44,124 nucleotides of DNA, filler included, from Sphacelaria rigidula (GCA_964200075.2; 2 parts of 2 records of this genome joined end to end with filler, not necessarily neighbours in it), one strand, 5' to 3'; counted from the first letter of the whole stretch, positions 1,991 through 37,266 are shown. Program-made: numbers and translations. The notes: generated by a model from the letters alone, not told the origin.

Positions 1991-3039
1991 ACTCCATCAG
2001 CGGGCCACTATACTGCACTGTTGTAGTATACGGCACCACAACTGTAATATAGTAGCTGTACTGGAATATTTCACTTTGGTTTGGGGCATATTCGAATGTT
2101 GGTGATGCGGAGAGATTTCGGACCGCCTGTCGAGACACCGCACGATAAATCCGGAGCGTGAAACAGGATATGGCCTGAAGGGGAACGAACAAAGCCAGCG
2201 ACCATGGCACTGAGGGACGTATCCATCATCAAGTGGTGGTGATGGGACATACATTTTTTTCACAACTTCTGAACGAACGATGCTTTCAGATGGCAAACAC
2301 GAAGTGCACTCAGACCGACCGTTGACCCGCTGGTTGCTGCACCGCTCCCGAGATACTGTTGGACTGGGTACTCGTACAACTCGTACCACAGCACGGTCTG
2401 CACGCCGCAGATCTACGTTGCAATTTCATGCGCAAAACGCACCTCATCGGACTATGCACTTAGATGTTCCGGCGCCCTGCCCTGCCACAGCTCGCGACAG
2501 GACCCTCCCTCAGGTTTGGTGCAAGTATCACTTGAATCATATGTTGGTACGGTCATCACCGGTCCATTTTCGAAACGTCTCCGTTCCCGTCCGCGAAGCA
2601 AAATCATCACATTCTTCTTCTGTCAACAATATCAAACATCAACAAGGTAAACTTAGACTATACGGGGAACATAAACAGAGTGAAATCCAAGCCTCCAGTG
2701 GGTATAGTCATTCAACGCTTTAGATTGCCCCCAGTTGCCCCTAATGACGAAAGCGAAATGGTCACGCGACCAATGCTTACAATAATGGGTATGACCAGCA
2801 CACGATTTAGGCGAATAGTACAGATGAAAAAAGACACATACTGTCATGAGCAGCAACGACATGTAATGGCGGTGTAGCACCGCACGACGCCACTGTATTG
2901 CACTGCACAACTGTGGCGCGCAAGGCCAAACCGTCGCGAACATCAGCAGGGATAACGGTGCTGTGATTCTACAGTGAGCTGGAGCAATAAGTGAAGCTGG
3001 TTTTGCCGTTGGTTTTGGGCGGGAGAGACTCGAAAGAGC

Positions 3040-3159
3040 ATGGGCGAAAGCATAGTCCTTCAGCGGAAGAGCGTCAAGGTTGCAGTGTCTCTGGCCCAGG
3101 TTGGGTCGTTCAAAGCCTTGGAGAAACATGTCCGAGATATCTTCAAGCTGGAGGATGAG
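3040..3159 (+). CDS. SMCHD1: SMCHD1-like protein, exon 1 (N-terminal ubiquitin-like domain)
   Basis: ATG at 3040 reads MGESIVLQRKSVKVAVSLAQVGSFKALEKHVRDIFKLEDE, then donor GAG|GTGAGG (phase 0). It joins in frame to 17393. The join ...DIFKLEDE|ATFVVTDFDREI resembles the SMCHD1 UBL segment recalled as LGISPEEKFVITTTSRKEI. Confidence 0.65.
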
Positions 3160-3988
3160 GTGAGGCTGGTTGCACCGCTTATATCGCGATGAGAGTGTGC
3201 GAGAACGAGACTAGAAACTTTGTGCAGTACTCAAGTGATGGCTTTGTTTCATGGCCGACGACAACGATGTCCAAATGCCATAAAACGTGGGAAAATCGCC
3301 ATCTTTCTCGCGTATTATAGCTTCCATCTATGATATGAGTCGGGTTTTGTATGCTTCCTCTAGTCGCTCCTGGTCCTACAAACAATGCCTGCGACCGTCA
3401 CTCATCTTCACGGCTCACAACTACTGCAGTCAGTGCGATACAGAGTTCCTGTCCCAATAGATTGTCAGAGTGCGCCGTACGGGATGCAGTTCTATCTTCA
3501 TGTATACACGTAGCTGCACAACAAGCGGCGAGTATGGTCGGGAAAAAGAGACGCACACTCCTGCCCCTTCGTCCAACAACATGATTTTCAAATTCGAGAG
3601 TGTCTCTCTCTCAGAGAGCGAGCGGTATGCTTATCCGTACACAGGTATACTGACTGTTGCAGAGGAAATCGCATCAATGATGCACGGTATTTCATGGCGC
3701 GAAAGATACATCGCGTACAGTATCAAGCGACCACGATGCCGTATTCCTCGGCGCGTGATCTACTATGTTTATAATCTTCGAGTGCTTCGTAGCAGGGTGT
3801 GCGCATTGGCCGCCACACGAAGGTCTGAAGGTCTGTTGGCGGTTAATCGGCCATTTCCCCACCACTCTTCATGTCAGGTCCGGTTCAGCGTATGATGTTT
3901 TTGAAAAATATTGACCATTTGACCTCCGGAGATCCATTCGTTGAATTGGCACTCTCTCACGTTCCTTTTCGAGTGAAAATGATGCCGA

Positions 3989-4203
3989 TTAACCCTTTGA
4001 CCACGAGGGTCGGTCGCCTCCGAAATCGGCATCAACTTCACTCGGAAAAGTATTTGTGACTCGGATGGACTACCCGTGTCGCGGCATAAGGGTTAACCCT
4101 TTGAACGCGAGGATAGGTCACCTGCTGAATCGTCAAAAATTTTCACTCGAAAAACGTATGCGTGATCTAGATAGGGTTACTGGCACTGCGGTCTAAGAGT
4201 AAA
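3989..4203. mobile_element. Two tandem ~105-bp piggyBac-like mini-elements sharing a TTAA
   Basis: TTAA-CCCTTTGACC...GCATAAGGG-TTAA-CCCTTTGAAC...GTCTAAGAG-TAAA, with homologous interiors. Confidence 0.55.
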
Positions 4204-4341
4204 AAAAAGACAGCCGTCACGAGGGATCGAAAATGACTGCGCGTTCGTGTCTGTGGAATAGCAAGGGTCGTATAAGAAAATCGCCCTGGACCCCGAGACA
4301 ATCGTTTCATTTTCGTCGCTGCAGGGGCGGTGGGGGGGGGG

Positions 4342-4530
4342 GTCCTCATTTGTTGCTTGCCTCAGTCTTTTGACCATTGACCACGCACCCCTTTCGAGAC
4401 GGAGCAAGGAGTGGGGGGGAGGGGAGGGAGGGGGGGGTACTCATTTTGCATCCCATAGTATGGCCATTGACCTCGTATCACTACAAAGCCGGGACGGAGC
4501 ACGCCCGATTTTTCGCCGAACTAGGCTCGT
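4342..4530 (-). mobile_element. LINE 3'-tail fragment (4342-4407) plus 3' part of repeat family A (4436-4530)
   Basis: Reverse complement matches to 21775-21840 and 17830-17922. Both end in G-runs on the plus strand. Confidence 0.75.
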
Positions 4531-4545
4531 CATCAGGGCGTATCT

Positions 4546-6058
4546 TACAGGCTGGTTCACACTTATCACCCGAAATTGTGTCACCAGCACATGCCTTTCG
4601 CAATATCTACCCAATAGTCGCAAGCATTATATCATACTGACCGCCATGAACAGCTGAAGAGCGTGACATGGCCGGATTTGTGTGTAGGGCCATAGTGGTA
4701 GCGCCGAGGGCTAACAGGTGTATCGATCAATCAGCGCCCGTCAAACTGTTCCGAGATCGAAATTACGAATTCCAAGCCCAATTTTCGCCCAATCTCCACA
4801 TGCTATAAATCGTAGTAATCGTCATCGGCTCGGCAATCTGACGAAAAAGAAAATCTTATAACGGTTTCTATGGGGGTCGATTCACACCCGAAACTGTGAT
4901 GTTTCGGTGATTTCGGCTGTTGGCGTCGTCTAATTTCCACGAATGATACGCACGAAAAACCGAGGGAGCTTCGTGACAGTGTTCCCTATATCTGTTGTAG
5001 CAAAGCTCAGATCGCCCTCAAACTTGTCAGTTCCGTAGGTATTGATGCTCCAAATGCAAAAAAAAAAATGTATTCTTGACTATAATTCATGGTTTCTCCG
5101 TTCTCTGCCGGCCCGGGGATCCCAGTATGAAGACCCCCGGAAGGCGATACATAATGCCCTAGAAGAAAAATAATGAAATGATGCGTCCCGGGATAGTCCA
5201 AGAAACACATGTACAAAGTTTGGTGGAGGAGCTCGAAAACCTCATACAGTTTTTCTTGCCTTGGCGTGAAATTCACCCCAAAAGCCGTCTCCATACTAAA
5301 ACTAAACCCACGTCCTCCACAAACGCGCAAACCTTCACGCCGTTATTAGGAGTTAGATCCTTTAACTTTGCACAAATATGCTATGTATCATTACGCAACC
5401 TTCTATGGACGATGCTTTTTCACTTTTTGAGTTCTTCACCGTTTTTCGGGGATCCAACGGGATCCAAGTCGTTCTTCGAAGTAGTCTCCATTCTGGGACC
5501 CCGGAAAACCGGCACGACGATATTTTTTTCATTTTTCCGTGAACAATCTGTCGCCGCATAACCCAAGGAAGGGCCCCACAAAATTCGTCGCAAAAATCGA
5601 TTAAATGATGCTTGAATTTTTATGTTCACGTGAAGGAAGGCCCAAAAACGCCGTTTTGGTACTGTAATCAAGTAGTTTGCGGTTTCACCGCGGCACGTCA
5701 AAGTTCACTTCACAGTGTAAGAGAAAAATACCTCACGCCGTTTGAAGTTTTAAGGAGTGCGACCCTGAAATGTTGCACACCTGTGCTATGGGTGATTTTG
5801 CAACTACGAAAGAATGCTTTTTTAAAATATTTTTTTCTTCACCGTTTTCGGGGGTTCGATTGAATCGATGTTTCCCGCAAAAAACTGGGACCCCGGAAAA
5901 ACGGTGGAAAATGTCAAAAAGCCGAGAAATCTCCACCTTCGAAAGGTGTGTAATGCCCCATAGAATATCTGTGCAAAATTTCAGGGTTTAACTCCTCAAA
6001 ACGGCGTGAGGTTCTGCCGATAAATGTTTTTTGGGTGATGGACGTGAACCAGTCTGTA
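4546..6058. mobile_element. Non-autonomous TA-flanked TIR element (Tc1/mariner-type ends) with internal foldback
   Basis: Left TA-CAGGCTGGTTCACACTTATCACCC versus right (rc) TA-CAGACTGGTTCACGTCCATCACCC. Internal inverted arms at ~5731-6012. Related copy at ~34545-34873. Confidence 0.6.
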
Positions 6059-6927
6059 GCATATTTTTTTGGACCGAAGAAGTGCGGTCGGAGTTTCTTT
6101 TACCGATCTGATAGGTCCACCGCATTTCTGTTCCTAGGAGGCTTAAACTAAATTTTTTAATTAGTGTCGCGCGGAGAAAACTATCAGCGCCTAGTACGAA
6201 TATTTCCGATCGAAAACATGCGGTCGAAAGGCACGAAGCGGCACTTGACTCCTATCTTGCAAGACCACCACGCCTGATAACACCCATTTACAAAACTGTG
6301 CAAACTCTATCCAACTCATTCTCAGCTACCACCGCAACCCTGCAGTAGAGAGCACGAGTTGAGCACAGGGATAAATACATTGCAGTAGTTGGGTATGTTT
6401 GTTTGTTTAGCATGGAGCACGAGTTGAGCACAGGGATAACTGCATTGCAGTAGTTGGGTATGCTTCGTTCATTTTTGTGGGCGAAAGCTTGCCCATCTTC
6501 TTTCATGGTGGGTATCAGCGACGGAATTGCGTGGTAGGGTGGGCAACTGGCTTACGTACACGGTCATGGACAGTGCAGGCAGTACAAAGCTGCACGTTGT
6601 CCAAGCCCTTCTCACGTCGCATTGTAGTCAGAGAGAACAGATAGTCCTGCGCTGTCTGAACCGCACGTTGCTCGCTCCTCCTTCACGCATCCTACTGCTC
6701 GAAACACGCACGCACTCACTCGGACACACTGCATGCAAACAGGGTAGACAGTACAGGCACAGACTGTTCATACTGTACACGAGGGACCAAGTACCGTTTC
6801 ACGACTTTCACTGCCTTTTCGATCGAAAACTTGAAAATTCTCGTGGACCCAACTCGACAAAAATGAGCGACTTTCGCTGATCTCAATTCCTCCGCCCCAG
6901 TTTTTTCGATCGAAAAAATATGTGCTA
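6057..6927. mobile_element. Degenerate TIR element containing a ~65-bp tandem duplication (6350-6462)
   Basis: Left TAGCATATTTTTTTTGGACCGAAGAA versus right (rc) TAGCACATATTTTTTCGATCGAAAAA. Repeated CGATCGAAAA subterminal motifs. Confidence 0.5.
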
Positions 6928-6935
6928 AGGAACGC

Positions 6936-7362
6936 TCTCAATCACCAAGCGCGAAGCGCCGTGGTGTGTTCAGCGAGTCGCATGAACGGTGAGCCGCATC
7001 CTGATGAGATTGTTCCGCCCGAAGCGTGCTGATTATCTTGCATTTGAATTACATCCTCAAATGAGTTGCTTCATTCTCTGGTAAGGCCACTTCAAGAGAC
7101 AGCGACGGCTCATACACGGCCTCATGGGTGTCTCACCATTTAAAGACTACGTAGTACGATCATCTCTGCGCGGAGTTGAGGTTCTCCCACCTCGCACAAA
7201 ATGATCTAGCTCGACTACCATCATGGTTAGCGCAAAAAAACGCAAGCGCGCCAAAAAATCGGTGACCTGCTTCCGTAGTGAGTGACGTGTTTTACAGAGT
7301 CATCGCCAACCGACGCCAACCCCCTAGGGGGTCCGCCCCTACAAAGCCGGGACGAAGCACTG
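6936..7362 (-). mobile_element. SINE-like repeat family A copy
   Basis: Colinear reverse complement of 35080-35480. Confidence 0.85.
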
Positions 7363-8877
7363 GAGGGGGGGGATGGGTATGCTACAGTGCTGGGCGCCTG
7401 AACTATGAGCCCTTTCGGGACTGAAGCTCAGTAACAAGGGGTTCACCATGTATTGGTGAAATAATAATGGACAAGTCTGGGAGTGACCTGCCCAATCAGG
7501 GCGAGGCGAAATTTATCGACCACAACCGAACGGCCAGTGGGGGGGGCTGTCACCGGGAGTGATGTTACTGCCAAGTTGGTATGTGTACCCTGTCCCTGGC
7601 CCGCAAAAAGCCTTCGAAGCAAGAAAAAGCCCAAGTAGTCGGGGCTCGGTTTCCCGTTTTTTTTCATCATTTACGTGCATTTTATATAGGTCCGACCTCC
7701 ACTGCCCCGATTTTTTGGGGGGTCACCATTCCATAGTAAAACCTAATTGATTACACTAACACGTCGTACTCGGGGGAAATTCGAGAATAGACGTAACCTA
7801 CTATATATGTTGTCATGTTTACAAGGCGACTGAATCCAGCAACACGCTGTGGGATGAGAGATGAAGCGAAAAGGCTTGGATTCTGTGTATCCCTCTGTCG
7901 AAGCGGTGCAAGCGGCGGTGAGGTCGTATGTCATCGACGGGAACGAGCAAGCTGTGTACAGGCAGCTGATCTCCGTCGCGGAGAACTGCCCTGAACATGT
8001 AAGGGAGTAAGAGTATGCAGCGGCAGCTGCTGCTGCATTCGAAGAGGCGTACTGTACTTTATCTGCTGCGCAACGCCCGTGCCGTTCGCAGAGAAAGTTT
8101 CCCGATCGCCACAAGGAGGGAAATTGCGGCCCACCCCGACCACAAAGGGCTGTGTGGCAAGGTGATGGAGACAATATCCAAGGCCACAAGTGGCGGACGG
8201 CGGTTGCCACATCCTGTTGAAATCTTTCCTCGGCGACTCATACTGCTTGAAACATCTGTACATTACCTGATGTGCACAACACCCGAATTATAATTGATTG
8301 GATGTAACTTTTGGTGTTCCTCTAACCCTGTGGTTACATAAATACGTGGATATTTAGCAACATGAATCCACAGTTTCATGCATATGTAGGACACGTCATT
8401 CCCGATCAGCCTCAATGGTCGTTCTGGAGGCCCCGTCTCAAAAATGTTGAGTGATTTACGGGCTGATCAGTCATCGGGGGCGTTGTCACGTTTCAGCCCA
8501 GATTCTGTCTCTTCGGTTTTTCGGTCGATCGAGCCTGTCCCGATCGTATTTATGAAGAAATTTACAGGATTTGTTTTTCAATATTTTGCGTACGCATTGC
8601 ACTAGAGCCGAGTTACTGTATTTCACGGTCAATAACACTCTCCTGATAAACAGGGTATCTATCGTATGGTCCGGTTACACCATGAAACACCAACTTGGGC
8701 TCAGGCGGGGCAAGATGATCTGTTTATTTTACAAAAATCTACCGACGCTGGCACTTTCGAGTTCTATCGAAGAGTAGTCGCGAGAGAAAACCCTTCTACA
8801 CCATTCGACAGTTTAGGCGCCCAGTACTGTAAATTCTTTTGTAAAGCTAGTTCTTCACTAATTCCTACACGAAACAT

Positions 8878-9228
8878 TCACTTGATATTCAAGTGGTGGA
8901 GGCAAGTTTCTTGAACTGAGTATAGATGAAACTCGTCCCTTGATTTTGGACCAGCTGAGGCAGGTTACTTGATTGAAGTGTAGGTCAACCGCATCACTTG
9001 ATTTGGACTAATCGAGGTAAGTTACTTGACCTCAGTATAGGTCATCCGCATCACTTGGTTTTAGACTATCTGAGGCAAGTGACTGAACTGAATGTAGGTA
9101 AACCATGTCACTTGATATTAGCCTAGGTGAGGAAGCTACGTGAACTGGGTATAGGTCGATTCAATCAGTTGACATCAGACAAGCTGAGCAATTTACTTGA
9201 AATGAGTATGGTTGAACCACATCACTCC
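8878..9228. repeat. Degenerate tandem array, ~57-58 bp period, about 6 units
   Basis: Recurrent CACTTGA...GAGGCAAGTTACTTGA...GTATAGGTCA at ~8879, 8938, 8995, 9052, 9109 and 9166. Confidence 0.75.
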
Positions 9229-9440
9229 ACGGAGTTGAATTCCTGTCAGGTGTACTTTCCGGAGCCAGTTTGTTAGGATAGTTGACGCCCAGAGTCCGGA
9301 CGAAACGAGAGATAGTTTTTGTGTTTGATGTTTCAAAATGATGTTTGATATTGATGACACTGGGTTGTTGGGTCGATTCCATCGAGCCGAATAGAAATTC
9401 TGCCTTCGAGGTCTTATGCACGGTCGGATCGGATAGGTTA

Positions 9441-9637
9441 TAGTATGTACCTCTGAGTTCGGCGGTAATATGTACTATAATACGTCGTACATGATACCCA
9501 GATGTTTACTCAATCCTAGTTTGCTCAAACTGGTTATAGGGTGTAGTATGTACCTCTGAGTACCTCGGTAACATATACTATAAGACGTCATACATGATGA
9601 CCAGATGTTTACTCCATCCAAGGTTGCTTAAACTGGG
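9441..9637. repeat. Tandem duplication of ~103 bp
   Basis: TAGTATGTACCTCTGAGT...CCAGATGTTTACTC...AAACTGG occurs twice. Confidence 0.8.
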
Positions 9638-9763
9638 CAAGACCTTGCTTCAGGCTGGGCCGCCGAAGAAACGGACTTTCCTTCAGCCCGTTCTAAATGA
9701 CGGTATATAGTGAGTTATGCTTACTATGACACATCGTGGTGGTCTGCGAATCGGCGCGCGTCT

Positions 9764-11259
9764 TTAACCCTTTTTGAAGCCACCCCTCCTGTCCCCTGGC
9801 CAAACGCCTTATTATGAGAAGCCCTGACGAAGAGGAAAACATGGAAACAGAATATGCCGACGGCAACCATTTTTATAATGGAAGCCCGAAGAAGAATGTC
9901 CTCCCTGGAGAATTTGGGTAAGGTCTCTCCAATCATACCACGCAACGGATGAAGTATGTCCAATTATATCCATCGACAATAACTAGCAAAACCACTATGA
10001 AACATTCCATTAAAAAAATAGCAATGGGCCCCAGGGTCCAACCTGGCACGTATATTAGCATTTGTACATGAGGGAAGCACCGCTTTGACGGGCTGCAGCA
10101 TCGGATGGCGAGTTTGCCAAGCCACACCGTACATACAGCATAGTGTGGCTAAACCCGGCGAAATCCCGTCACCACATGTGGAAGGCACAGTGGGTTGTTC
10201 GGGTGGTACATGGCGGGCGTAATCGCAGGCGTCCGAACAAGCGGTATATATGTACACGGGAGGGAGCCAACGGACACCGCCTACCGCAATCAGGCCAGAT
10301 GAAGAACACTGCAGTCAGTAAATACAGTAGGTTACAGTATTGACTTGCGGCTAGACTCCGTGCAAGATAAATATGGGCATGTCGTGAAAAGTCGGCCATG
10401 AGAGTAGACGGCACGAGACGATAGCGGTAGCCGGCGTCATGAATCTCATGCAGCACGAAGTATGTCTGTGCAACGGCCGGGAACGATCAACCCGCGGTAT
10501 AGATGTGGTGGGGCAACTGTGCTTTTCGCTACGCCGTCGTGTAATAGTCAGCCCGAAGTATGATGTTGTCGGCACGTACTTGGTAGAGCGCAGTTCCGTG
10601 CATGCCCCGCGTTTTACAGAGATATTTCCAAAATACAATACAGACATGACACGAAGCAGTAAGGTATGACCCCTGGGGCGACGGCACGTGGCAGACTCTA
10701 CACCACAGTGACGGTGCATGACTGCAGGGCACATGGCGTCTGCGTCGCCTTTACCCATTTTTCAAAGGGCGGGATGGTGCTGTCGGAACGTGCATGAGCG
10801 CGAGATGACCCCAAACTGCTGTGAACACACCCAGTACTGTACAGGGTAGTGTCGCAGCACCCCCGGCGGCACGGAAAGGTGACTGCCTGGGATTGTATTA
10901 CACCGCCAGTTCATAAATTTAGCGAATGTGCCATCGGCGTTGCCCTTGTTGCTATGACACTGCCAAGAGTATAAACCGCAGTGGGCAGGGCGTGCAGGTC
11001 AAGCGGGAAGCATGCTTCACAGAGGCCTGCCGCGCACTGTGGCCGGGGCAGGAACTCATGAGAGTAGAAAAAAACGCCGACGGGTCGCAGCAAGAAAATA
11101 GGAAGCCTTCTCTTGTTCCACTTGTCACTCGTACTGGTCTGAAAAATACGCGTTTGGCCAAAATTGTTGCGTCTAAGCTGTGAACCAGCAACCATATCTT
11201 GCTCAAAAACCGTCAATTGCAAATGATCAATTTTCCATTGTGAGTTCCAAAAGGGTTAA
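9764..11259. mobile_element. Non-autonomous piggyBac-like element
   Basis: TTAA-CCCTTTTTGAAGCCAC on the left and (rc) TTAA-CCCTTTTGGAACTCAC on the right. No transposase ORF recognised. Confidence 0.55.
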
Positions 11260-11763
11260 TGTACGTAGCACCGCGATTCCACGAGTTCCCATCAAACGAA
11301 ATACCAAAGTGTAGGCAGCTGCGAAGTGTAGAGAGTTGATGGTGATATGTGCAACGGAATTAGGGCAAAAAAACGACTGAAATCGTATTTTCGGTTACAG
11401 TCGGTTGTGCCACGGCCGCAAAGTGGTGGTGCTTCACAAGTTATGATTGTACAACAACGCATGTCGTACTGCCGGCGTGCAGTGTTTGAGATGGCACGCA
11501 GACGAGGCCTCCAGCGCGCCCAGGTGTCTGGTAGTGTTGTGCAAATCGGTAAGCAGTGGGTGAAATAAGCTTGTAGAGAATGAGAGTCAAAGTTCAGGCT
11601 GAGGTTGTTGGACTCTAAAAGCAAGTCAATCGGTTCTCAACAGGAAATCGCGGTTGCGCTGCTCAATTTTGAGTCGTTCATTTTGATATTTTGACACGAT
11701 GTGCATACGGTATGTGCAAAACCCCTGTTATCCCTTCACCTTTTGCTTTTTTTCCTTGAGTTG

Positions 11764-13216
11764 TCCAAGGGCAGGTCGAGTAGAGTATACTCAATACTCA
11801 GTATGTTCGAAAAGTCATAGTTGCAGTACTCAAAATTTGGGTAGTGTATTTGAGGTCGTACTCAATCTACTCAAAATTTTGAGTAGAGTATTGAGGTCAT
11901 ACTCAAGTGATACTCTGTACTCAAGTATCTCTGAGAGTGCTTACTCCATATTTGAGTAGAGTATTGGAGGTTATACTCAATTTCCACAAAAAAAATGAGT
12001 GGAGTATTTGAGGCCATACTCGACTTACTCAAAATTTGAGTGGAGTATTCGAGGTCGTACTTGACCTACTCGAAATGTGGGTAGAGCATGTGAGGCCGTA
12101 CTCGACCTACGCAACTTTGAGTAAAGTACTTGAGGTCGAACTCGACCTACTCTAAACTTTGAGTAGAGTATTTGAGGCCACACTCGGCCTACTCAAAATT
12201 TGAGTAGAGTACTTGAGGTCATACCTAATTTACCCGAAAGTTGGGTAGAGTAGCTGAGGCCGGACCCGATTTACCGACAGACTAAAACTTCAACTTCAGT
12301 GTTCAAGTTCGTAGGCAAGATACTCAAAGTTGGGTGGAGGAAATACCGAGGTATTCCCAGAGTTGCCCACCCATGATCAGTGCTGGTTCAAGATCAAACA
12401 TCAGCAAACGGATACAGTATATTTGAGAAAGCATTTCGGTCAGAACCAGATGGTTCAAAACGAGTGTAAAACCAATATTGGGGGTCGAAGGGCGTTCGGA
12501 TTGTACCGTGTAAACTGGTGGGGGTACTGGAAAGCGAAAAAATCATATCGAAGTATTGGGCAGTCGAAGTCTTACTCTGTTCATTCACCTACACGCTTTT
12601 TTTTTTTTCATGGCATTTGCTCATACTCCTTGTAGCCTGTAACGTAACGCCACCCATCTGATTGATGGTCATCGTTCGCCCATGTATTCAACATGGTCTG
12701 TGAAGTGACGTCGCGAAGTCGCCGACGGTCACGGATAGTAACAATACCTAAGTAATACTCTATATTGAAGTAGTACTGAGAGTGCTTACTCAACATTTAA
12801 GTAGAGTACCTGAGGTCGTACTCGATATACTCGAAATTAGAGTATTGGGGTCATGCTCAAGTGATACTCTATACTCAAGTATCACTGAGAGTGCTAACTC
12901 AATATTTGAGTACAGTACCTGAAGTCGTACTCGATCTACTCAAATTTTGAGTAGAGTATTGGAGGCCGTACTCGACCTACTCGAAATTTGAGCAGAGTAT
13001 TTGAGGCCATGCTCGACCTACTCAGAATTTGAGTGGAGTATTGAGGTCATACCCAGGTTATACTCTATACTCAACTACTACTGAGGATGCGTACTCAAAT
13101 TTTGAGTAGAGTATTGGAGGTCGTACTCGACCTACTCAAACTTTTGAGTAGAGTAAATACTCGAGTGTTTTACTCGAGTACTCAAAAGTACATACTCTAC
13201 TCGACCTGCCCTTGGA
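11764..13216. mobile_element. TIR element with two arrays of ~40-bp self-complementary units
   Basis: Perfect 25-bp TIR TCCAAGGGCAGGTCGAGTAGAGTAT. Arrays of TTTGAGTAGAGTATTGAGGTCGTACTCGACCTACTCAAAA at ~11820-12280 and ~12760-13190 surround a unique core. Confidence 0.85.
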
Positions 13217-13454
13217 GATTTCGGTAATCTAAATTTCGCAACAGATTTTCTCCCCGGGACAAAATATTCGATGAATACTCATTGAAAAAACAAGTCAAGG
13301 GAGGGAAATGAGCGTGTTCCAAGATCGCTCGACCACATCGTCTCAAAACTTTAGGGAAAACAACTTGAAATTGAACAGGTAACCGCGGTTCAGAGTTTCC
13401 GGTTCGCGTCGTGGTTGGAACACCTCCACATGGGAACCAGTTTTCTACACCAAA

Positions 13455-13721
13455 ACGCGATTATCTGCTCAATTTTGGGTCATTCACTATGAAGTTTTGA
13501 CACGATGTACAGGACGTGTGTGCGAAGACCCCATTTTCTCCCCCCTACAACCTTTTTCTTCGTGAGTTATGAGCGACGGATATTTTTTTTCGGATCGCAA
13601 ATAGCTCACAAAAAAAAAGAAGAAAATGTAGGGGAGAAAAAATGAAGTCTTCGCACATACGTCCTGTGCATCGTTTCGAAATTTCATTGCAAACGACACA
13701 AAATTGAGCAGCATTATCGTG
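13455..13721. mobile_element. Foldback MITE; a related copy (arms ~11647-11750 and ~13296-13390) is split by the 11764-13216 element
   Basis: Inverted arms CTGCTCAATTTTG...ACGATGTACAGGACGTGTGTGCGAAGAC / GTCTTCGCACATACGTCCTGTGCATCGT...CAAAATTGAGCAG. Confidence 0.7.
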
Positions 13722-16700
13722 TCAACTTTCCTGTCCGCCTCTTTTGTGGCCCAGCCTGAACGAGCTGGACCAGCTGAGAGTGATTTTTCGTGTTTCGGGG
13801 CCTGGCTGTGAGGAATTCAAGGAGGTTGAACGCTGAAAACTGCTGTACTCTGATGCTTGGTCAAACATCATGGACACCAAAAGCGTTGTGGCGAAAAATC
13901 CACATGTACATGCCAGCGTTTCACCCAGCACATTCAATTCGATCTTCCTCGCAAAAACTACCAGGCATCATGCGTGCTAACCAGAGCAGCACAGCACGCA
14001 GATCCCAATCATCCACGTGCCAGCATTTTACCGAGCGCACGCGATGCGATCATCTCGCTCATTCTCCATGCTTCATTCGCAAACATAACCACGAATCACA
14101 CAAAAAAAACTACAATCATCCTCAAGAATTGTTGACAAATATCGGTCATCATGTCCTTCTTCATCCTCAACAAGCACACAACTATACCAGCATTTGCTCC
14201 TCAACAATATCACCCAACCTTGCGTTCATCACAACAGTAGGCACCTCACGTAATGCCTCCTTGTAGTCCTACAACCCGCTCCGCAGAAACAGCAGCACTC
14301 AAACCACAACCTGGTGCACACCATGGAGCAGCGTTTCCACTCAAACACGCGCCGCTCGTATCAGTACAGCTGCAGCTCATACCCCCACAGTGCCGCTCAG
14401 CTCGCCACCAAGCGGTATCCTCGCACCGCCAAAGCAATACGACAAACCATCTACCGACATATATTTTGCGCAGTACCGAGCACCTGTTCTTCAGTCAGTT
14501 TCAACGAGGCAGCGAGATGCAGGACGAGAACAGCTACACAGTCCCGCACAGTAGCACATCCCGATGACATCACACCACCTTTGACCATCCCACAGCGCAA
14601 CGGTAGAGACACCCTCGTCATCACCGCCAAACAGGCGAATTTTTTCCGTCTACATGGCAGTGCTTGCGACCAGCTCAGCGCTACACGACGCTCGACGTCG
14701 GCATAGTAATTGCGACCGCCGAGAGCATCACAAGCCTGAAACTCACTCTGCCTACCCGCTTCACACGGGTCATACTCCCCCGCTGCTTCGAGCACGCAAG
14801 GTGCGTCCCCAGCTACACCCTCGTCATCGACTGACAGTCGGTCCAGCGAATCCACACCCGCGATCCCGGCATCCACTTCTCCTTCAAGCAGGCACCCGTG
14901 TGAATCATCTGAGCAAGCTCCCGCCGTGTCACTGGAGTAGATAGATTAGCCATGAGCATGGCGAGCCCCAAGCCCGCTCTGCTCGCTCGCATGACGCAGA
15001 TAACACTCTCCTGCAGCTCCGAGCATGCAAGGGGTGTGTACTCAGCTACACCCTGGTATGGCGGCAAGATGCATCTGGAACCTTCGCCTCTCAGCGCTTG
15101 CTCATCCGCCGAGGTAGTCTCGACCCTTTCAACATCAGCGACAGCAGCAGTCAACGAAACTCACTTGAGCTCCCACGTGCTGCCCGGCTCGCTTCTTGAC
15201 GACAACATCAGCGGCTCTACTACCTCCAGAGCTCTCGTGCTTGTACCCTCGAACTGACAAGTGCAGCGTGACATGGTCCCCCTCTTCAGCAGCACCATCA
15301 GCAACCCCGCGTCGTTGCTTCAGACGCGTGCGCGGTGTGCGCTTCCGGGAACGACCAACATCCCGACCACCACTATCTGTTGTCCCAGCATCATGCACCA
15401 CGCCCGAAGACGCATGCTTGCGCAACGCGAATAACAATTGCTGATGGCCAACATTACCGGCATGATTGAAGAACATGGCACTCAGATACCTCTCAATATA
15501 TTGTGGCGTAAGATCAGAAACCGCTGGCACCTCAAGAACGTTCCAGTCTATCGCACGCGCGTTCATCTCTTGAACTCGACACACTACGGTTCGGTCATTC
15601 CGCACTACCTTTTGCCCACCCAAATGTATTGCTTTGGGGCTGAGGTTGAAAACTCCACTACGTTGGGCCAACTCTTTGTGGAACAAAATCGAGATCAATA
15701 TTACGACCAATCCTGATCTTTTCTCAACAAAGTTGGCCAGCGTCACGACCTTTATATCGAAACTGCGCGACGTGAATACTTTTTTTCCAGCTCGTGAGAA
15801 CTATGAAAAAGGAACGGAGATTAGAAAAAGAAAATGATTTCATGGTTGGAAGTCGTCCGGCTATCTTCGTCCACAAGAACAGCTGAAGATAACGTAATAC
15901 TTCGCAGCTGTTGGCGCATTTGAAAAATCAACGAGGCATATTCTTGTGTTTGCCTCGAAAGCGGGGTGTTCTGTTTTCATAAGAGTTTATTCCAAAAGCT
16001 GCATAGCCAAGATGATACTGACTGTACAGTCGAACACAATTCCTGGAATGAGATGGGATCATACAAACATGGAAACGAGGAGGGCTCATTGTGGTCCGAA
16101 TGGCTTTATTCTCACTTTCTTACTAGACAACTGGCTCGCAGCGTAAACACGACCGCGTGGGTCCATTTTTTCTGTTGTGCGCGTGCCACTCTTGGATCTC
16201 GAGAAAAGTGCAGGTACCACTTTTCATGCTCGTCGGGTAGACTAGCCTGTACAGAAGCGTGCACCTAGCTTAGTCGGCGCGTCCGCCTTCCCTTCGCTAC
16301 AAAAATATTTGAGCAGTGAAGGAACATAGCACAAGGCAGTGGTGGTGCGGTGATGCAAGAACACAGTACAGTAGACAGGAATTTTCGGATCACCTAAAAG
16401 CACAGGTGATGCTTTCCTGGCCTTGAAAAAATATTGCCCACTTCAGTACCAGTGTATTCAATTCAATTTTTGGCTGGCCATTTATGGGTATAGCTCTCGG
16501 AAGGGAACAGGTCGGGATCGTTACACCTGATAGTTTGAGTAAAGTCATGAATGCCTTGTGTAGAAGCACGGGCGAGATTATGGGTCTCTTTTGGCGATCA
16601 AGCCGTGCGGCAAGAGATTTAGAATTACTATAGGATGAACATAACATTACATCCACCGCCGTGCGAGCTCTAACTACGCGCGCGATGCAACAATACAATA

Positions 16701-17392
16701 TGCGCATCGGCTTGAAGCTCATCGAGAACCGAATGCGATATGATTCGTTCGGGTCGGATACACTGGAGCTGAAACATAGACGGTGCTTTCAGGAGCCGTG
16801 CGCTCAGTCAAAACTACGCAAACGGCAAGCAGTCCGATTTGTTTTTTTTTGCTCTGTTGGTCGACCGGTGAACTGATTGCCGTGAGCTAGAGCTCCTGCT
16901 GTGTCGCAGCCGTGGGGTCATTATTTGATCTAGAGCGCCTGTGCTTCTGGCACTCCCATAGTACAGGGACGCGCAGTTGTACGTGAATAAATCTTAATAC
17001 CTGCGTAGAATTATGGAACATGGAACATTTTACAAATCTGTGTCTTGTGCCTTGTAGCACCTTGCTCGGTCAAGTCTCTGTTCGTTTCCCTGGTTGTATC
17101 CGTTGTTTCCGGGTAAAATCACATGTACTCGAAATATAGGAAAAAAAACTCGCCAAAACTTGACCTCCCATGAAGATACAACCGATCGTACTCGACGTGT
17201 ATTGATGAACTTCCATCGAAAAGTTGTCGTCTTGACGTGTGTTGATCATGGTAGTCGTCGCCTTCTTCCACAAGTCGATGTACATGAATCTCTGCCGTTG
17301 TTCGCGTGTCTGTCTGTCTGTCTGTCCATGTCTTACATCCCCGTCTTCTGTCTGCTCCCCGACTGTGTGGCGTCGCTCTCTTCGCTCAAAAG

Positions 17393-17532
17393 GCCACCTT
17401 CGTGGTAACCGACTTCGATCGTGAGATCGTCATCGATGCTAAGGTCTACGGGGAGATGCGATCAGGGAACTTCTGGCGACGCAACCCTGCAGCGAACCGT
17501 CAGTTTCTCGTGCTCGACAATATTTCGTCCAC
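17393..17532 (+). CDS. SMCHD1: SMCHD1-like protein, exon 2 (UBL domain)
   Basis: Pyrimidine-rich tract and AAAG| acceptor. Reads ATFVVTDFDREIVIDAKVYGEMRSGNFWRRNPAANRQFLVLDNISS, then AC|GTAAGT donor (phase 2), compatible with exon 3. Confidence 0.75.
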
Positions 17533-17655
17533 GTAAGTTCGATCTACGGTACAACAGAGATGTAGGGCAATATCCTAAGCAGCCAGGCTGCTGCATGACA
17601 AAGCGACCGCCCCCTGCCCCCCTCCCTCCCCTGGACACCCACGAGGCAGTGTGTA

Positions 17656-17950
17656 ATCCATGGCTGTCTGAAAATTGTGATACCAGAAATTGAAGCCACT
17701 TACTATAGGCTGTCCATGTGCAAGATAATCAGTACGCTTCGGGCTGAGTAATCAGCAGGGTGCAGCTCACCCGTCATGCGGTCGCCGAATACACTACGGT
17801 GCTTCGGGCTTGATGATTGGTTGCGAGGCTAGCCCAGCGAAAATCGGGCGAGCTCCGTCCCTGCTTCGTAGGGATGCGAAGTCAATGGCCATACGACTGC
17901 TGCATGCAAGATCATGAGTACCCCCCCTCCCCCCCCCCCCCCCCCCCCTC
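17656..17950 (+). mobile_element. SINE-like repeat family A, 5'-truncated copy with poly-C tail (intron 2 of the SMCHD1-like gene)
   Basis: Matches the family 3' half and ends GATCATGAGTAC(C)n. Confidence 0.85.
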
Positions 17951-18664
17951 TTGATGCCAGGGGTATAGTTCATGTGTGTCCGATGCCTGATTGTAGCCTC
18001 TGCGACGTGAGACACTTGCAAGTTCGATTGTTTCTGTTACTACACTATCTCGTGCAATATAAATATACATGGAGTATGCCCATGTTCTGATGAACGGGGT
18101 TGTTCTTGAAGAGAACGAGATACTTCATGTCGAGACAAACGTATTTGAAAAATATCTTCATCGGCGATAACAAGGAGCAGTGGGGAGGCACTATATCTCC
18201 ACCTTCACCTGCCTCGTAGTTCCCGAATGTTGCCACCACGAGTAGTCAGTATCTGCTTGGTTCGAGTCGGGTCAATTACTACTTGACACAAGTGCACTCT
18301 GAAACTGGATTTGGTATTACTTTGTAGTCAAGTAACAACTTGGTTCCTGGTTCCAGTTAGGGACCAATTCATGTTGGCTTACTACTTGGTTTCAGTATCT
18401 CTACCCCCCTCCGCCCCTCCCCCCGCCCCCTCAGCTTCTCGTATCATAAAGTGTCGAGTCCAAAGAGGAGGGGGGTAGTCTGCGTTTCGTAGGGTCCCTG
18501 GGCAACGATGGTCTCATGAAAGTATTTGCTGCACATATTGTATCTTCGTATAAGCTGCAAGAAAACAGTTGATAATTTATACTCTTTCCCGAAAATATCA
18601 GCACGAAAAGGTCATTTTGGTATGTTATGGATTGCCCCTGCGTGATTTCGTGATGTTTTCATAG

Positions 18665-18791
18665 GCTGGAAGGTGACGTGGAGCTGGAGGTATCCTATCA
18701 GCCTCACTATAACACTATCACCAAGACGGGTGAGGCCAACTTCAGCAAGGTGCCTCACGCCGTGGCGGAGCTTATTGACAACTCAATCCAG
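18665..18791 (+). CDS. SMCHD1: SMCHD1-like protein, exon 3 (start of GHKL ATPase, motif I); gene continues beyond contig
   Basis: ATAG|G acceptor completes the phase-2 codon. Reads (T)LEGDVELEVSYQPHYNTITKTGEANFSKVPHAVAELIDNSIQ, donor CAG|GTCGGA. AELIDNS is the GHKL N-box, and PHYxTxxKxG precedes it in SMCHD1. Confidence 0.8.
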
Positions 18792-19339
18792 GTCGGAACG
18801 TATGAAGATGTACAAGCGGCGGGGTAGAATGGTGTGCTCACGTGCACAATATTAGCAGTACATTCAACCTGTGTGACATATTTCTAACCGCACACCCTGA
18901 AAACCGTAAATTTCGTCCATGGGTCATGACCTGCTGTGTCTCACGTACAGAAATGGATACAAGCAACTCGAGAACGTTATGGTTGTCTCCGTGGTTCAGA
19001 CACACACCCGAACCCAAAACATGGAAACACAAACGGGATGGGGGCGAGGTCGAAGGAATGGTATCACCGGTCAACTTTTGACGACGGTAGAAGTTGTGCA
19101 GTCAGCGTGCGATCAGCTGAGAGGGAAGGGGCGTATCTTTGTTCAGGTCAGGGTGGATGGTAGTAATGCACTACATCAGCAGTGATGCCCACCCTTGATG
19201 GGGGCGTCTTTTTGTGCTATTGATATCGATCACTATCGCCCCCCTTACGGGGCAAGGCTTCAAGTAGGAAAGTAGTCAAACGAAGCAGGGTTCAAATCCT
19301 AGTGTAGTGAAGGAGGGGTTTGTGAAGTGATGAGAATGT

Positions 19340-21845
19340 TTGTGCGTATACACTGGGTAAGATCGTTCGGGGTAGGAAAGACGCCGGGCTGACAACGTAC
19401 TGTTTTTTTCTGGACATGCAAAGGCGTATGACACAATATGGAGAAATGGGCTGCGGAAACAGTTGTGGGAAGCTGGGATCAGAGGAAAGATGTGGAGAAT
19501 GGTGAAGGAGATGACATAATGTGTCAAAAGTGCCATGATGCTAGATGGGGAAATAACGAAATATTCTAATACTTTACAAGGAGTTGCACAAGGATATACG
19601 TTATCACCCTCTTTGTTCGAAGTATTTATTCATGACTTGATTCTAGCAATATAAGCAGAAAAGAAAGGGGCCAAGGTGGGTGAAGAGAGGGTACCAGGAT
19701 TGATGTTGCGCGGATGATTTTGTGGGGATTTCAGAAACACCAAAGGGACTACAGATACAGATAGACAAGGCGCCTGAATACGCCAGGGAATGGAGAGTGA
19801 CAGCGAACGTTAACAAATGCGTGGTACTTGTCGGTAACGAAGATAAGAAAAATCCGGCAGAGTCCAAATGGAAGTGGGGATAAGAGGAATTGCCGATCGT
19901 AGACCAGTATACATACCTTGGTCTAGAGATATAAAAAAAACTGTTCTTGGGACACATGAACAAAGTAATAGAAAAGGGTAGGGCACAGGTAGGAAGGATG
20001 GACGTGATCCTCAGAGACTCGCATCTAGACTCTAGGATTAAGAGATGTTTACTGATGAACGTGATCGTACCGGAGCTGGAATGTGCAGGAGAAGTATGGG
20101 AGGGGAACGTGAAGTTGGTGGAGAAGTTGGAAACATTACAGATGGCAGCAGCTAAGAAGATACTCGGACGCTCGAAAACGACGAGTATTACAGCATTGAG
20201 AGCAGAGTTGGGAATGTACTCACTTAAAACAGAGACATGAGGAAATTGAGGTGGCAATATTGCAGCTATATTCTTTAGGGCTGTATGGAAGAAAACTACG
20301 AAAGGGCGGGCTGGAATAAGATGGGATAGAGAAGTTGAGAAAGTATCGAAGGAGGTACGAGCTGGGCCAGCCGAAAAGCGATTCTGCAATTTGCAGGCCC
20401 ATTATACGGCCAATACTTGGCGCTGGACCCTGAAATTTGGTACGGACAATGAGTAGGGCATAAAAAAAAATACTGGCATACACAATTTTTTTTTCATGAG
20501 TTAATGGCATTTTACCGTTATCTGAAAACTGATTATTGCCCTTAACTCATGAAAAAAACAAAAAAAACCTTTTGTACGCCAGTAATTTTTTTATTATGCC
20601 CTTCTCATTGTCCATACCAAATTTCAGGGTCCAACTTCAAGTATTAACCGTATAATGGGCCGTGTAGTGACAGGGTTAGAAGAAATTCGGAACAGTATTT
20701 TGCAGGCTATTTACCGGCCCACGTTTGGTGTTTGTGTATTGAAACTTCGAGTGGGGCGTGGCTAGGGCATAAACAACAAATTAAAGTGGGTCAGGTTGAT
20801 TTTTTAAAATTTTTTTCCACTGATTTAGGGCGTTCTACTATGGTTAATACCATATTTCACGAGAACGCCCTACCCCTATGAAAAAAAACAACAGTGAAAG
20901 GCTCTTTTTTTTTTGTGGTTCTCCACACCAAAATTCGTCGCCATTCGCTAAATGCATCGATCGGGAGTTTCATGGAGATTTTAGTATTGGCGCTATCTCC
21001 CTCAGGTATGGGAATTACTAGACATGGGTTCAATCAACGAGAAAATATGGGCCCAAACTTTTGAGCAGATGGGCACCTTCCCTTTGATTAGACGATTAAT
21101 ACGATATGCGCATCACGGCCCAACTCGTCTGTGTCGATGAGCTATTGCTTTTAGAGCTTAAATCCGTGATTAGGCTGGCCCAGCTCGTAGGTGGAGACCA
21201 GGACGAAATACTCTCCATAGATGAGGACGCGGGGTACAAGGCAAGAGTAACAGACATGATAAAAATAAGGGAAAAAGGAGCGCTGAGACAAAGTAGCCGA
21301 GGAAGAACACCTGAAGGTATACGGGGGGTTGAGAGAGGCGATCGGGATGAAAACATATCTGCATGGCCCCATGGACGCGGCGATAAAAGTGAAACTGCGA
21401 TTTCGGGTGGGGGACCTGTACCTGCCAGAAATAAGAAATAGATATACCAGCAGTCGAGAGGAGGAAGTAGATGGACAGAACTGCCTCTGTGGCAAAGCAA
21501 TAAAGAGCAGAAGTCATATACTTGGAGAATGTGAACTATACAAGGAGGAACGGGGCGTGCCAGAGGGAAATGCGGGACGTGAACGAAGATGGCATGAAAT
21601 CGTTTGATGCATTAGACAATAGCGAGAAAACGATGGTTGTACTAGGGGATAGATGGTGCCCACAGACAGCAAAACAAGATGAGGATAAGATATGTGAAAG
21701 GTTTTTTTGTAATGTATGGAAAAAACGTAATGAGCACCAGAATGTTGGAGGTGTCTCTGTTAGGAGTAGAAACGGTGCTCCGTCTCGAAAAGGGTGCGTG
21801 GTTAATGGTCAAACGACTAAGACAACCAACAAATGAGTACGCCTC
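19340..21845 (+). mobile_element. Decayed, 5'-truncated non-LTR retrotransposon (LINE) ORF2: reverse transcriptase, CCHC-like finger and 3' end
   Basis: Broken frames read YTLGKIVRGRKDAGLTTYCFFLDMQ/AYDTIWRNG, QGVAQGYTLSPSLF, a decayed FADD region (DDFVG), NVNKC, YTYLG, LRAELG and CLCGKAIKSRSHILGEC. Multiple stops and frameshifts. 3' end ...AAATGAGTAC followed by a C-rich tail. Confidence 0.9.
20358..21187. mobile_element. Non-autonomous TIR element with TA target duplication, inserted in the LINE
   Basis: Perfect 15-bp TIRs CGAGCTGGGCCAGCC (20358-20372 / 21173-21187) flanked by TA on both sides. Internal foldback at ~20396-20661. Confidence 0.85.
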
Positions 21846-21867
21846 CCACCCCCCGCTGGCTAGACAC

Positions 21868-22022
21868 CTATGAGGCAGCGTAAAAGCCGTGGCTGTCTCT
21901 GGAAGTGACGATACCACAAAATAAAGTAACTCACTATTGGCTGTAGGCTTCGCGCCGAACACACGACGGCGCTTCGCGCTTGGTGGTTTGAGTGCAGGCC
22001 TGGTCCGGCGAAAACCCGGCGT
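21868..22022 (+). mobile_element. SINE-like repeat family A, partial copy at contig end
   Basis: Contains ATGAGGCAGCG...CTCTGGAAGTGACGATACCA...CTGGTCCGGCGAAAACCCGGCGT. Confidence 0.75.
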
Positions 22023-22122
22023 NNNNNNNNNNNNNNNNNNNNNNNNNNNNNNNNNNNNNNNNNNNNTTAATTAATTAANNNNNNNNNNNNNNNNNNNNNN
22101 NNNNNNNNNNNNNNNNNNNNNN
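22023..22122. other. Artificial contig-joining spacer (Ns with six-frame stop TTAATTAATTAA)
   Basis: Exactly 100 nt with TTAATTAATTAA at 22067-22078. The flanking contigs are of near-identical length (22022 and 22002 nt). Confidence 0.95.
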
Positions 22123-22228: not shown

Positions 22229-22725
22229 CAAGGGTTAGCTTCGGTTGGCAACGACGCTGTAAAAAACGCCACTCCCTGCGTGAACTAGGCGACCAGGTCA
22301 CCATTTTTTTGTCGCCTGCGTTTTTTTGCGGTAACCATGATGGTGGTCGAGTTGAAAATATTTTGCAGGATAGAGAACCTGAACTCCGCGCAAAGGGGAT
22401 GATCCTACTACGTACTGTTTGAAACATGAGATACCCATGAGGCAGCGTAAACCGTGGTTGCCTCTGGAAGTGGCGATGCCAGAAAATGAAGTAAGTGACT
22501 GTAGGCTGTCGTCCATATGCCGAATAATTAGCACGCTCCGGGTCGAACAATCTAAGCAGGATGCAGGTCACCCCTCATGCGTCTCGCCGAACACATCACG
22601 GCGCTTCGCGCTTAGTGATTGCGAGCGTGGTCCGTCAGAAACCCGGCGTGCTTCGTCCCGGCTGTGTAGCGATGCGAGGTCACTGGTCTTGGACTACGGT
22701 GTGCACGATCATAGATACCCCCCCA
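22229..22725 (+). mobile_element. SINE-like repeat family A copy
   Basis: Colinear with 33193-33692, flanked by C-runs. Confidence 0.85.
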
Positions 22726-26162: not shown

Positions 26163-26195
26163 CCACCCGGCCGATGTCCCTATAAATCAAAACAG

Positions 26196-37263: not shown

Positions 37264-37266
<3 letters not shown>

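Follow-up and report, generated by a model that had tools for sequence, protein, structure and literature searches.

The transcribed 5' end of a probable SMCHD1 ortholog in the brown alga Sphacelaria rigidula

To our knowledge, SMCHD1 has been studied almost only in mammals, in X inactivation, in imprinting and at the D4Z4 repeat in FSHD. In mammals the protein acts either after Polycomb marks have been set or together with H3K9me3 and DNA methylation. Plant GMI1, a non-animal member of the SMCHD1 family that combines a GHKL ATPase with an SMC hinge, acts in DNA repair rather than silencing. The MORC proteins, which are not known to have an N-terminal ubiquitin-like domain (UBL) or an SMC hinge, resemble the family in having a GHKL and S5 module, in dimerizing upon ATP binding and in compacting or silencing chromatin. 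As described in PMC6620310, the head of SMCHD1 is structurally similar to MORC, its UBL (residues 25-109) is required for ATP-dependent dimerization, E147 and N151 lie within motif I, and the hinge homodimerizes. The gene described here is a further member of the SMCHD1 family, of which orthologs in other brown algae have been predicted but not named.

Three short exons with compatible splice phases had been proposed in a first-pass annotation of the window (the whole 44,124-nt stretch of Sphacelaria rigidula DNA analyzed), and all three were recovered at exactly those positions with an open frame (Table 1). All are bordered by GT..AG, their 387 nt make 129 codons free of stops, and the splice phases are 0 and 2, the split codon AC/G encoding T. 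Exons 1 and 2 encode the first and second halves of the ubiquitin-like domain, and exon 3 adds a linker strand along with GHKL motif I (AVAELIDNS), in which the catalytic Glu and the Mg-binding Asn lie. The 5' UTR has no ATG, and stops occur in frame upstream of the start codon. Within intron 1, two stretches (4024-4690 and 6692-7358) rise to a summed word depth of 6e5-8e5 in X1, a DNA-like run in which the exons stand at about 30, and repeat families D1-D3 are found at 11826-13155.

Table 1. Features of the SMCHD1-like locus and of the contig join, in window coordinates
Feature	Position	Strand	Details
5' UTR of exon 1, minimum extent	2875..3039	+	spliced contigs start at 2875 (X6), 2877 (X8) and 2939 (X7)
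Exon 1, coding part	3040..3159	+	120 nt, 40 codons; ATG start; donor GAG/gtgagg, GT at 3160
Intron 1	3160..17392	+	14,233 nt; dense in high-copy repeats, with a 41-nt tandem array; skipped in spliced contigs
Exon 2	17393..17532	+	140 nt; acceptor aaaag/GCC, donor CAC/gtaagt
Intron 2	17533..18664	+	1,132 nt; skipped in X8 record 25; kept in X1 DNA contigs (records 7 and 8)
Exon 3	18665..18791	+	127 nt; acceptor catag/GCT, donor CAG/gtcgga
Start of intron 3	18792..22022	+	GT donor at 18792; runs into the repeat in which the left contig ends
Artificial separator	22023..22122	.	100 nt: 44 N, TTAATTAATTAA, 44 N; gene model interrupted

When the Pylaiella homolog P0014 was searched against the whole window with tblastn, three collinear plus-strand matches were obtained, corresponding exactly to exon 1 (P0014 residues 1-39, E = 2.1e-05), exon 2 (64% identity to residues 35-84, E = 7.6e-16) and exon 3 (87% identity, E = 1.4e-18). 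Because the three are collinear and every other match in the window has E > 2, the exon set is more than chance. The 129-residue product could be aligned over residues 1-129 with the orthologs P0012, P0014, P0017 and P0018 at 65-71% identity (65% for P0012), and over residues 3-129 with P0019 at 68%; the exon-3 peptide by itself matches brown-algal proteins at 88-95% identity. A starfish SMCHD1-like protein shares 28% identity over 119 columns (pairwise E = 3e-12).

All three of the small-share runs (X6, X7 and X8, which belong to one study and are only presumed to be RNA) yielded spliced contigs, with 0-1 mismatches, and contigs of the DNA run retain the introns. Record 25 of X8 (4448 nt, depth 33) carries 2877-3157, 17391-17532 and 18665-18792 at adjoining record coordinates with 0 mismatches, record 18 of X7 (4388 nt) connects 2939-3157 with 17391-17532, and record 9 of X6 (4450 nt) spans 2875-3157. 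Both of the predicted junctions, 3159/17393 and 17532/18665, are thereby seen in spliced contigs; the first appears offset by 2 nt (3157/17391) because the AG at 3158-3159 is identical to the AG at 17391-17392. The start of intron 3 is covered by unspliced, low-depth X6 contigs over 18769-19123 and by an X1 DNA contig over 17959-19399. The 15 rows listed of the joint table (1262 further rows) do not include the exon junctions. In short, all three exons are genuine and form the start, as transcribed, of a brown-algal SMCHD1 relative.

No exon past codon ~130 was found by tblastn in the whole window, which, since the downstream GHKL, S5 and hinge exons lie outside it, shows just 129 codons. Some 600 nt beyond exon 3 begins a repeat of high copy number, degraded and retroelement-like (about 19365-22022), with an X1 depth of 5e5-1.3e6 from 19365 onward and a weak RVT_1 match at 19704-19880 (E = 0.011, below cut-off). 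The spacer that follows, N44-TTAATTAATTAA-N44, has the look of a separator with stops in all six frames, placed between unlinked contigs; in 10.1101/2023.02.08.527609, a spacer with this six-frame-stop core serves to separate contigs in pseudochromosomes, the published spacer being similar, not identical. On the far side, a BIG-type ArfGEF is present by its C-terminal domain only. The remaining ~2,200 codons would be absent because the left contig ends in the high-copy repeat and was apparently glued there to an unrelated contig. A practical lesson for this assembly is that, with the gene spread across two or more contigs, any annotation of it yields a fragment.

Taken together, the region 2875-18791 (+) is very probably the transcribed 5' end of a brown-algal SMCHD1 ortholog, the remainder of which lies off the window through the contig join. 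It is improbable that the locus instead ends after exon 3 by retroelement insertion or rearrangement, so that the exons would be a transcribed piece of a pseudogene or would begin a chimeric transcript, and that the intact gene lies elsewhere or is lost. Such a truncation would fit the absence of exon 4 onward from all 44 kb and the proximity of the high-copy repeat to exon 3. However, the exon-bearing contigs of 4388-4450 nt in the three runs have a depth of 30-39, compared with 2-3 for intronic pieces, and 3897 nt of the 4448-nt contig are placed nowhere in 2023-22022, that is, the transcript extends ~3.9 kb past the exons. Moreover, the frame is intact, the peptide is as close to its orthologs as given above, motif I is unchanged, and a break at the spacer, exactly 100 nt long, with the ArfGEF beyond it reduced to its C-terminal domain, is the pattern of two glued contig ends.

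The gene had been assigned in the first-pass annotation to the SMCHD1 family, with a UBL and a GHKL ATPase, and not to MORC, Hsp90 or MutL, and this assignment stands. When the orthologs and a profile (A1) were compared with 177,635 distinct PDB sequences, 6mw7 (human SMCHD1) was the sole GHKL chain at E ≤ 1 (3e-32 and 7e-31 from orthologs, 1e-35 from the profile), and no MORC, Hsp90 or MutL chain was found at that threshold. P0014 and A1 matched no other PDB sequence at E ≤ 1, and P0017 matched one antibody fragment in addition (E = 0.57). The family-specific Pfam domain SMCHD1_S5 (PF22899), which lies outside the window, was found in P0014 (2.2e-26), P0017 (2.9e-24), P0018 (1.5e-24) and P0019 (2.5e-23) at 83-93 bits against a cut-off of 27 bits. 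AVAELIDNS of exon 3 is matched by ALAALIDNS in the crystallized E147A construct, with Glu at the E147A position and Asn at N151, and DNGKGM and FGVGA of the orthologs (GHKL motifs II-IV, outside the window) also align to 6mw7. Beyond the brown algae, the best database relatives either bear the name SMCHD1 or contain SMCHD1_S5.

These results make it very improbable that the gene encodes another GHKL ATPase (MORC, Hsp90, MutL or sacsin-like) with an SMCHD1 likeness confined to the surroundings of the ExxxNS motif, although motif I is common to all GHKL ATPases, the orthologs match the general family HATPase_c and pass HATPase_c_3, no single exon matches Pfam, and exon 3 alone, for which 6mw7 is the sole PDB match at E ≤ 10, reaches it at only E = 0.94. 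The two ends of the protein also argue against it, the N-terminus by a UBL ahead of the ATPase and the C-terminus by collinearity with the SMCHD1 hinge region. An AF2 model of 160 residues of the ortholog P0012, with pLDDT 84-94 over residues 1-80 and the order beta-beta-alpha-beta-alpha-beta, retrieved the four chains of 6mw7 at Foldseek ranks 1-4 (E = 1.4e-4 to 3.5e-3), followed by ISG15, PB1, Elongin B and UBL folds. Low TM-scores were obtained against 6mw7 (TMq 0.41-0.43, rmsd about 18 A), since a broken portion of the ATPase fold is included in the model. The alignment of profile A1 reaches into the UBL region of 6mw7, starting at chain position 53, and the modelled N-terminus is a predicted ubiquitin-like beta-grasp domain directly ahead of the ATPase, as in SMCHD1.

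The S5, the hinge and the overall architecture are known from orthologs of other species, the window carrying 129 of about 2,370 codons. Pfam SMC_hinge was recognized, below cut-off, in one of the three full-length orthologs (P0019, residues 2059-2191, E = 0.026, 15.4 versus 22.5 bits) and was absent at E ≤ 1 in P0017 and P0018; no PDB hinge structure was found by sequence search. By hhalign, the C-terminal 600 residues of the brown-algal proteins were collinear with animal and Naegleria SMCHD1 C-termini over 413 columns including the hinge (probability 97.35, E = 1.6e-11). The animal middle-domain families PF26194-PF26201, annotated in the animal matches, were not recorded for P0014, P0017, P0018, P0019 or P0034, in which they may be too divergent for detection; because they are mostly missing in Naegleria and other protist members, they are treated as a feature of the animal branch and not of the family.

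An origin by animal contamination or recent transfer is scarcely credible: although the named relatives outside the brown algae are mostly animal SMCHD1, identity to the animal proteins is only 22-30%, four brown-algal proteins form one clade (SH-aLRT 100) apart from 10 animal rows (98) and beside unnamed protist sequences in a tree made by a quick method from the first 900 residues, the introns share repeat families with the rest of the window, and the DNA and spliced contigs carry the same organism label. A fifth brown-algal row in this tree, P0034, is on a very long branch, probably because the cut of its 3304-residue merged model missed the homologous part.

Like human and mouse SMCHD1 (6mw7; PMC6620310), the orthologs have, in order, a UBL, a GHKL ATPase, an SMCHD1-type S5, a long middle region, and a coiled coil with a hinge-like C-terminus; the Glu and Asn of motif I are conserved in exon 3, and 6mw7 heads the fold matches besides being the one solved structure related by sequence. 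However, the brown-algal proteins are just 22-30% identical to SMCHD1 and ~350 residues longer (2368-2394 versus about 2005-2030), PF26194-26201 are undetected in them, and their hinge falls under the Pfam cut-off. Membership of the MORC family was considered and rejected, as no MORC chain was matched at E ≤ 1 by the brown-algal orthologs or the profile, a UBL is present and the C-terminus is hinge-like.

By analogy with human SMCHD1, the following mechanism may be proposed. The 129 codons would provide the N-terminal UBL and the first GHKL ATPase motif with its catalytic Glu and Mg-binding Asn, and the rest of the protein, to judge from full-length orthologs, would provide GHKL motifs II-IV, the S5 transducer, the long middle region, and the coiled coil and SMC-hinge-like C-terminus. 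The hinge would keep the protein dimeric, and ATP binding would close both N-terminal GHKL heads with the assistance of the UBL, so as to form an ATP-gated clamp on chromatin or DNA. The foremost, if tentative, candidate for its role is compaction and silencing of repeats or heterochromatin as by SMCHD1; double-strand-break repair, as by plant GMI1, is the next most likely, and the probability left by these two falls to something else or to silencing and repair together.

The brown-algal host has no X inactivation. Ectocarpus is described as having neither PRC1/PRC2 nor H3K27me3 (PMC7784034) and no DNA methylation (10.1101/2024.02.19.579948), and therefore any targeting pathway must differ from that of SMCHD1. 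The lineage in which this clear ortholog is expressed is multicellular and complex, and has lost both 5mC and the two Polycomb complexes. In a recent study of Ectocarpus transposons (PMC12477816), the silencing machinery is described as still to be uncovered, and the brown-algal ortholog offers a concrete candidate gene there, as a putative chromatin silencer. A more far-reaching idea, which we consider rather unlikely, is that this conserved, expressed ortholog is a core part of the missing chromatin-level silencing of brown algae, an ATP-gated hinge-dimer clamp compacting transposon-rich islands or U/V sex-chromosome regions and perhaps recognizing, in place of H3K9me3 or H2AK119ub, H3K79me2 or chromatin marked by small RNAs. 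If this were true, SMCHD1-type compaction would be an ancient layer of silencing that depends on neither 5mC nor Polycomb.

In the literature searched, no paper linked SMCHD1 to brown algae or stramenopiles, the sole match being on Marchantia, and the main text of a 60-genome brown-algal preprint makes no mention of SMCHD, GHKL, MORC or hinge. The gene had at first been called hidden, which was overstated because existing gene predictions from Ectocarpus, Pylaiella, Scytosiphon, Ascophyllum and Laminaria contain orthologs, N-terminal exons included, entered as "unnamed protein product". Outside the brown algae, Naegleria gruberi P0033 and the unnamed protist proteins P0064-P0069 are similar in having about 1,900-3,000 residues with HATPase_c_3 and SMCHD1_S5, but are very divergent (21-30% identity), unnamed and unstudied. 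From the presence of these two domains in them, the family is widespread in eukaryotes, and two of these proteins, P0033 and P0066, pass SMC_hinge too.

The three plus-strand exons that the first-pass annotation had placed at the 5' end of an SMCHD1-like gene lie at the proposed positions (table). Joined in phases 0 and 2, they form a stop-free frame of 387 nt, or 129 codons; their single-exon translations are P0001-P0003. A tblastn search of the whole 44-kb window with the ortholog of Pylaiella littoralis (P0014) gave three collinear matches exactly on E1, E2 and E3 (E = 2.1e-05, 7.6e-16 and 1.4e-18, respectively), and all remaining matches had E > 2; the correspondence is not a chance one.

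Coordinates of the features in the window
Feature	Position	Strand	Description
Short dispersed repeat	1-120, 6928-7108, 22448-22628, 33417-33597, 35316-35466	both	76-84% alike; on both sides of the spacer
Copies of this repeat	4024-4690, 6692-7358		enormous depth in all runs
End of an X7 contig	2442-2707	-	contig of 3379 nt, depth 49
E1	3040-3159	+	120 nt; ATG start; donor GAG/gtgagg
Tandem array	11826-13155		inside intron 1; unit of ~41 nt; two blocks with, in all, 13 copies (60-89% alike) of a 65-nt reference
E2	17393-17532	+	140 nt; acceptor aaaag/; donor CAC/gtaagt
E3	18665-18791	+	127 nt; acceptor catag/; donor CAG/gtcgga
Spacer	22023-22122		exactly 100 nt: 44 N, TTAATTAATTAA, 44 N
BIG-type Sec7 ArfGEF C-terminal domain	26146-28258	+	right of the spacer
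Frame with LLC1 match	29967-30449	-	near threshold: E 1.7e-05, 25.8 vs 27.3 bits
Gene with RGS (regulator of G-protein signalling) pieces	36683-38795	+	three frames/exons, E 1e-08 to 1e-04

A sequencing-run search with 17000-19300 found five strong DNA-like runs, and four that the tool took for RNA and that contain 8-14% of the sampled words, which is what E2 and E3 make of this stretch (267 of 2301 nt). Contigs of three of the latter (X6, X7 and X8, with shares of 0.08-0.14, all from one study, their RNA nature being the tool's guess and carrying no RNA label on record) and of a DNA-like run, X1, were placed on 2023-22022. Record 25 of X8 (4448 nt, depth 33) matches 2877-3157, 17391-17532 and 18665-18792 without a single mismatch; these segments occupy its positions 4168-4448, 4026-4167 and 3898-4025, so that the exons adjoin. 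Record 18 of X7 (4388 nt, depth 38.9) links 2939-3157 to 17391-17532, and record 9 of X6 (4450 nt) spans 2875-3157; the 2-nt offset at the E1/E2 joint arises because AG is common to both sides. The X1 contigs (2023-4169, 15519-17669 and 17959-19399), in contrast, keep the introns, and both predicted junctions are therefore used, X8 containing the two of them and X7 the first. Short of RNA, it would be difficult to account for contigs that skip 14.2 kb and 1.1 kb between GT..AG borders; the contigs are evidence of splicing, and an expression level cannot be read from them. According to the spliced contigs, the 5'UTR extends to at least 2875, with no ATG in 2875-3039, and the transcript continues for about 3.9 kb past the three exons. 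The minus-strand X7 contig that ends just upstream of the gene may represent a divergently transcribed neighbour.

As to the family, a search with the E3 peptide yielded, from 19 candidates, 13 proteins at E <= 10 and at identities of 76-95%; those with names come from Laminaria digitata, Ectocarpus sp. and Pylaiella littoralis. The three exon products are contiguous in P0012 (Ectocarpus, partial) and P0014 (1449 residues). Over all 129 positions, the residues of the window align with P0012, P0014, P0017 and P0018 at 65-71% identity, and over 3-129 with P0019 at 68%; they share 28% identity across 119 columns with a starfish SMCHD1-like protein (pairwise E = 3e-12). The full-length orthologs P0017 (Scytosiphon, 2394 residues), P0018 (2375) and P0019 (Ascophyllum, 2368) exceed the cut-off of Pfam SMCHD1_S5 (83-93 bits vs 27), and they also pass HATPase_c_3. 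Among 177,635 distinct PDB sequences, P0014 matched solely 6mw7, the SMCHD1 ATPase module (E = 3.3e-32); P0017 matched it at 6.7e-31, with an antibody fragment (E = 0.57) as its one further match, and A1, a profile of four sequences, at 1.2e-35. No MORC, Hsp90 or MutL chain appeared at E <= 1 with any of these three queries, which, 6mw7 being the sole GHKL chain at that level, supports membership in the SMCHD1 family over those three, as had been proposed. E3 alone also matched solely 6mw7, at an E of 0.94 that is not significant by itself, and Pfam gave nothing real on the single exon peptides (only DUF4807 for E1, E = 0.11).

The E3 sequence AVAELIDNS aligns on ALAALIDNS of 6mw7, whose crystal construct is described as human SMCHD1 24-580 with E147A (PMC6620310). 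In the same report on the human protein, E147 activates water and N151 binds the metal, so both of these motif I residues, Glu and Asn, are present in the window, the Glu falling on the E147A position and the Asn on N151.

The N-terminal ubiquitin-like (UBL) domain was assessed on a folding model of the 160-residue Ectocarpus ortholog P0012 (17-row alignment), standing in for the spliced product of the window. The model has a mean pLDDT of 76 (84-94 over residues 1-80, below 50 for residues 95-114) and its predicted order of elements, strand, strand, helix, strand, helices, strand, is that of a beta-grasp. The top four Foldseek matches in PDB were the four chains of 6mw7 (E = 1.4e-4 to 3.5e-3), followed by ISG15, PB1 domains, Elongin B and several UBL domains; the TM-scores to 6mw7 are only 0.41-0.43, low values explained by the model stopping within the ATPase fold. 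The alignment of A1 to 6mw7 also covers UBL sequence, beginning at chain position 53. Together, these results argue for a UBL domain, as modelled on an ortholog.

At the other end of the orthologs, Pfam SMC_hinge matched residues 2059-2191 of P0019 below threshold (E = 0.026) and was absent from P0017 and P0018 at E <= 1, and sequence searches of PDB with P0017 and A1 found no hinge structure; the Naegleria gruberi protein P0033 passes SMC_hinge. A profile-profile comparison of the last 600 residues of P0017, P0018 and P0019 with the C-termini of six animal SMCHD1 proteins and Naegleria gave a probability of 97.35 (E = 1.6e-11) over 413 columns, which take in the final middle domain together with the coiled coil and the hinge. 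None of the brown-algal proteins has a record of the animal middle-domain families PF26194-26201. When eight diverse members were combined into a profile, a search with it returned 46 proteins, mostly animal SMCHD1, along with several unnamed protist proteins that have SMCHD1_S5.

In a tree of the first 900 residues, made by a quick method only, four brown-algal proteins group together in a single clade (SH-aLRT 100), apart from ten animal rows (98) and adjoining unnamed protist rows. On this placement, the gene looks native and old rather than a product of animal contamination. A fifth brown-algal row, P0034, has a very long branch, probably because the cut missed the homologous part of a merged model: this brown-algal-like eukprot entry (3304 residues), in which the SMCHD1-like part is joined with ankyrin and other domains, is probably a fused gene model.

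If the brown-algal protein works as human SMCHD1 is described to do, its hinge would dimerise constitutively and ATP would drive dimerisation of the GHKL heads, with the UBL required (PMC6620310). The hinge dimer and the ATP-closed heads would together make an ATP-gated clamp on chromatin, a mechanism that we infer from the human protein. Chromatin silencing, as proposed for the gene, would be a candidate role; the rival one would be in DNA repair, in which plant GMI1 reportedly acts. Some interest attaches to the SMCHD1-like gene from its context: Ectocarpus is described as having neither PRC1/PRC2 nor H3K27me3 (PMC7784034), DNA methylation is stated to be lacking or nearly so in most brown algae (10.1101/2024.02.19.579948), and according to a 2025 transposon study, silencing there operates with no machinery comparable to what animals or plants have (PMC12477816). 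The literature searched yielded no paper that treats SMCHD1 in brown algae or stramenopiles; the brown-algal genome preprint entered this search by its main text, and its supplements may list the gene. The gene had been called hidden. Public proteomes already list its orthologs under the label "unnamed protein product", so that predictors in general do not miss it; in this assembly, however, the gene is probably split.

The window contains only the first 129 codons. Beyond ortholog residue ~130, tblastn with P0014, P0011 and P0012 gave only chance matches in the window (E > 0.1), and no GHKL, S5 or hinge family was found by Pfam in its 262 stop-to-stop frames of at least 70 residues on both strands, the sole matches being BIG2_C, LLC1, RGS and a weak Srw. 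The DNA past E3 is unique to ~19.4 kb (X1 contig 17959-19399 and low-depth, unspliced X6 pieces); from there to 22022 lies a very high-copy, degraded retroelement-like repeat (depth 5e5-1.3e6) with a weak RVT_1 match (E = 0.011). A spacer sharing the core of the one that follows, with stops in six frames and with flanks that differ from those seen here, is described as gluing contigs into pseudochromosomes (10.1101/2023.02.08.527609). We infer that two unlinked contig ends are joined at the spacer, with exon 4 and all later exons on a different contig. The spacer is of the contig-gluing kind, and features on its two sides are not to be read as neighbours. On its right, in G+C-rich DNA (56-59% GC over 22-28 kb), the ArfGEF piece matches BIG2_C profile positions 56-111 at 26146-26964, more weakly, and 118-176 at 27494-28258 (E = 2e-06); no Sec7 domain was seen in the long frames, nor the N-terminal parts of a BIG-type ArfGEF in the window. 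The RGS gene and the LLC1-matching frame follow farther to the right.
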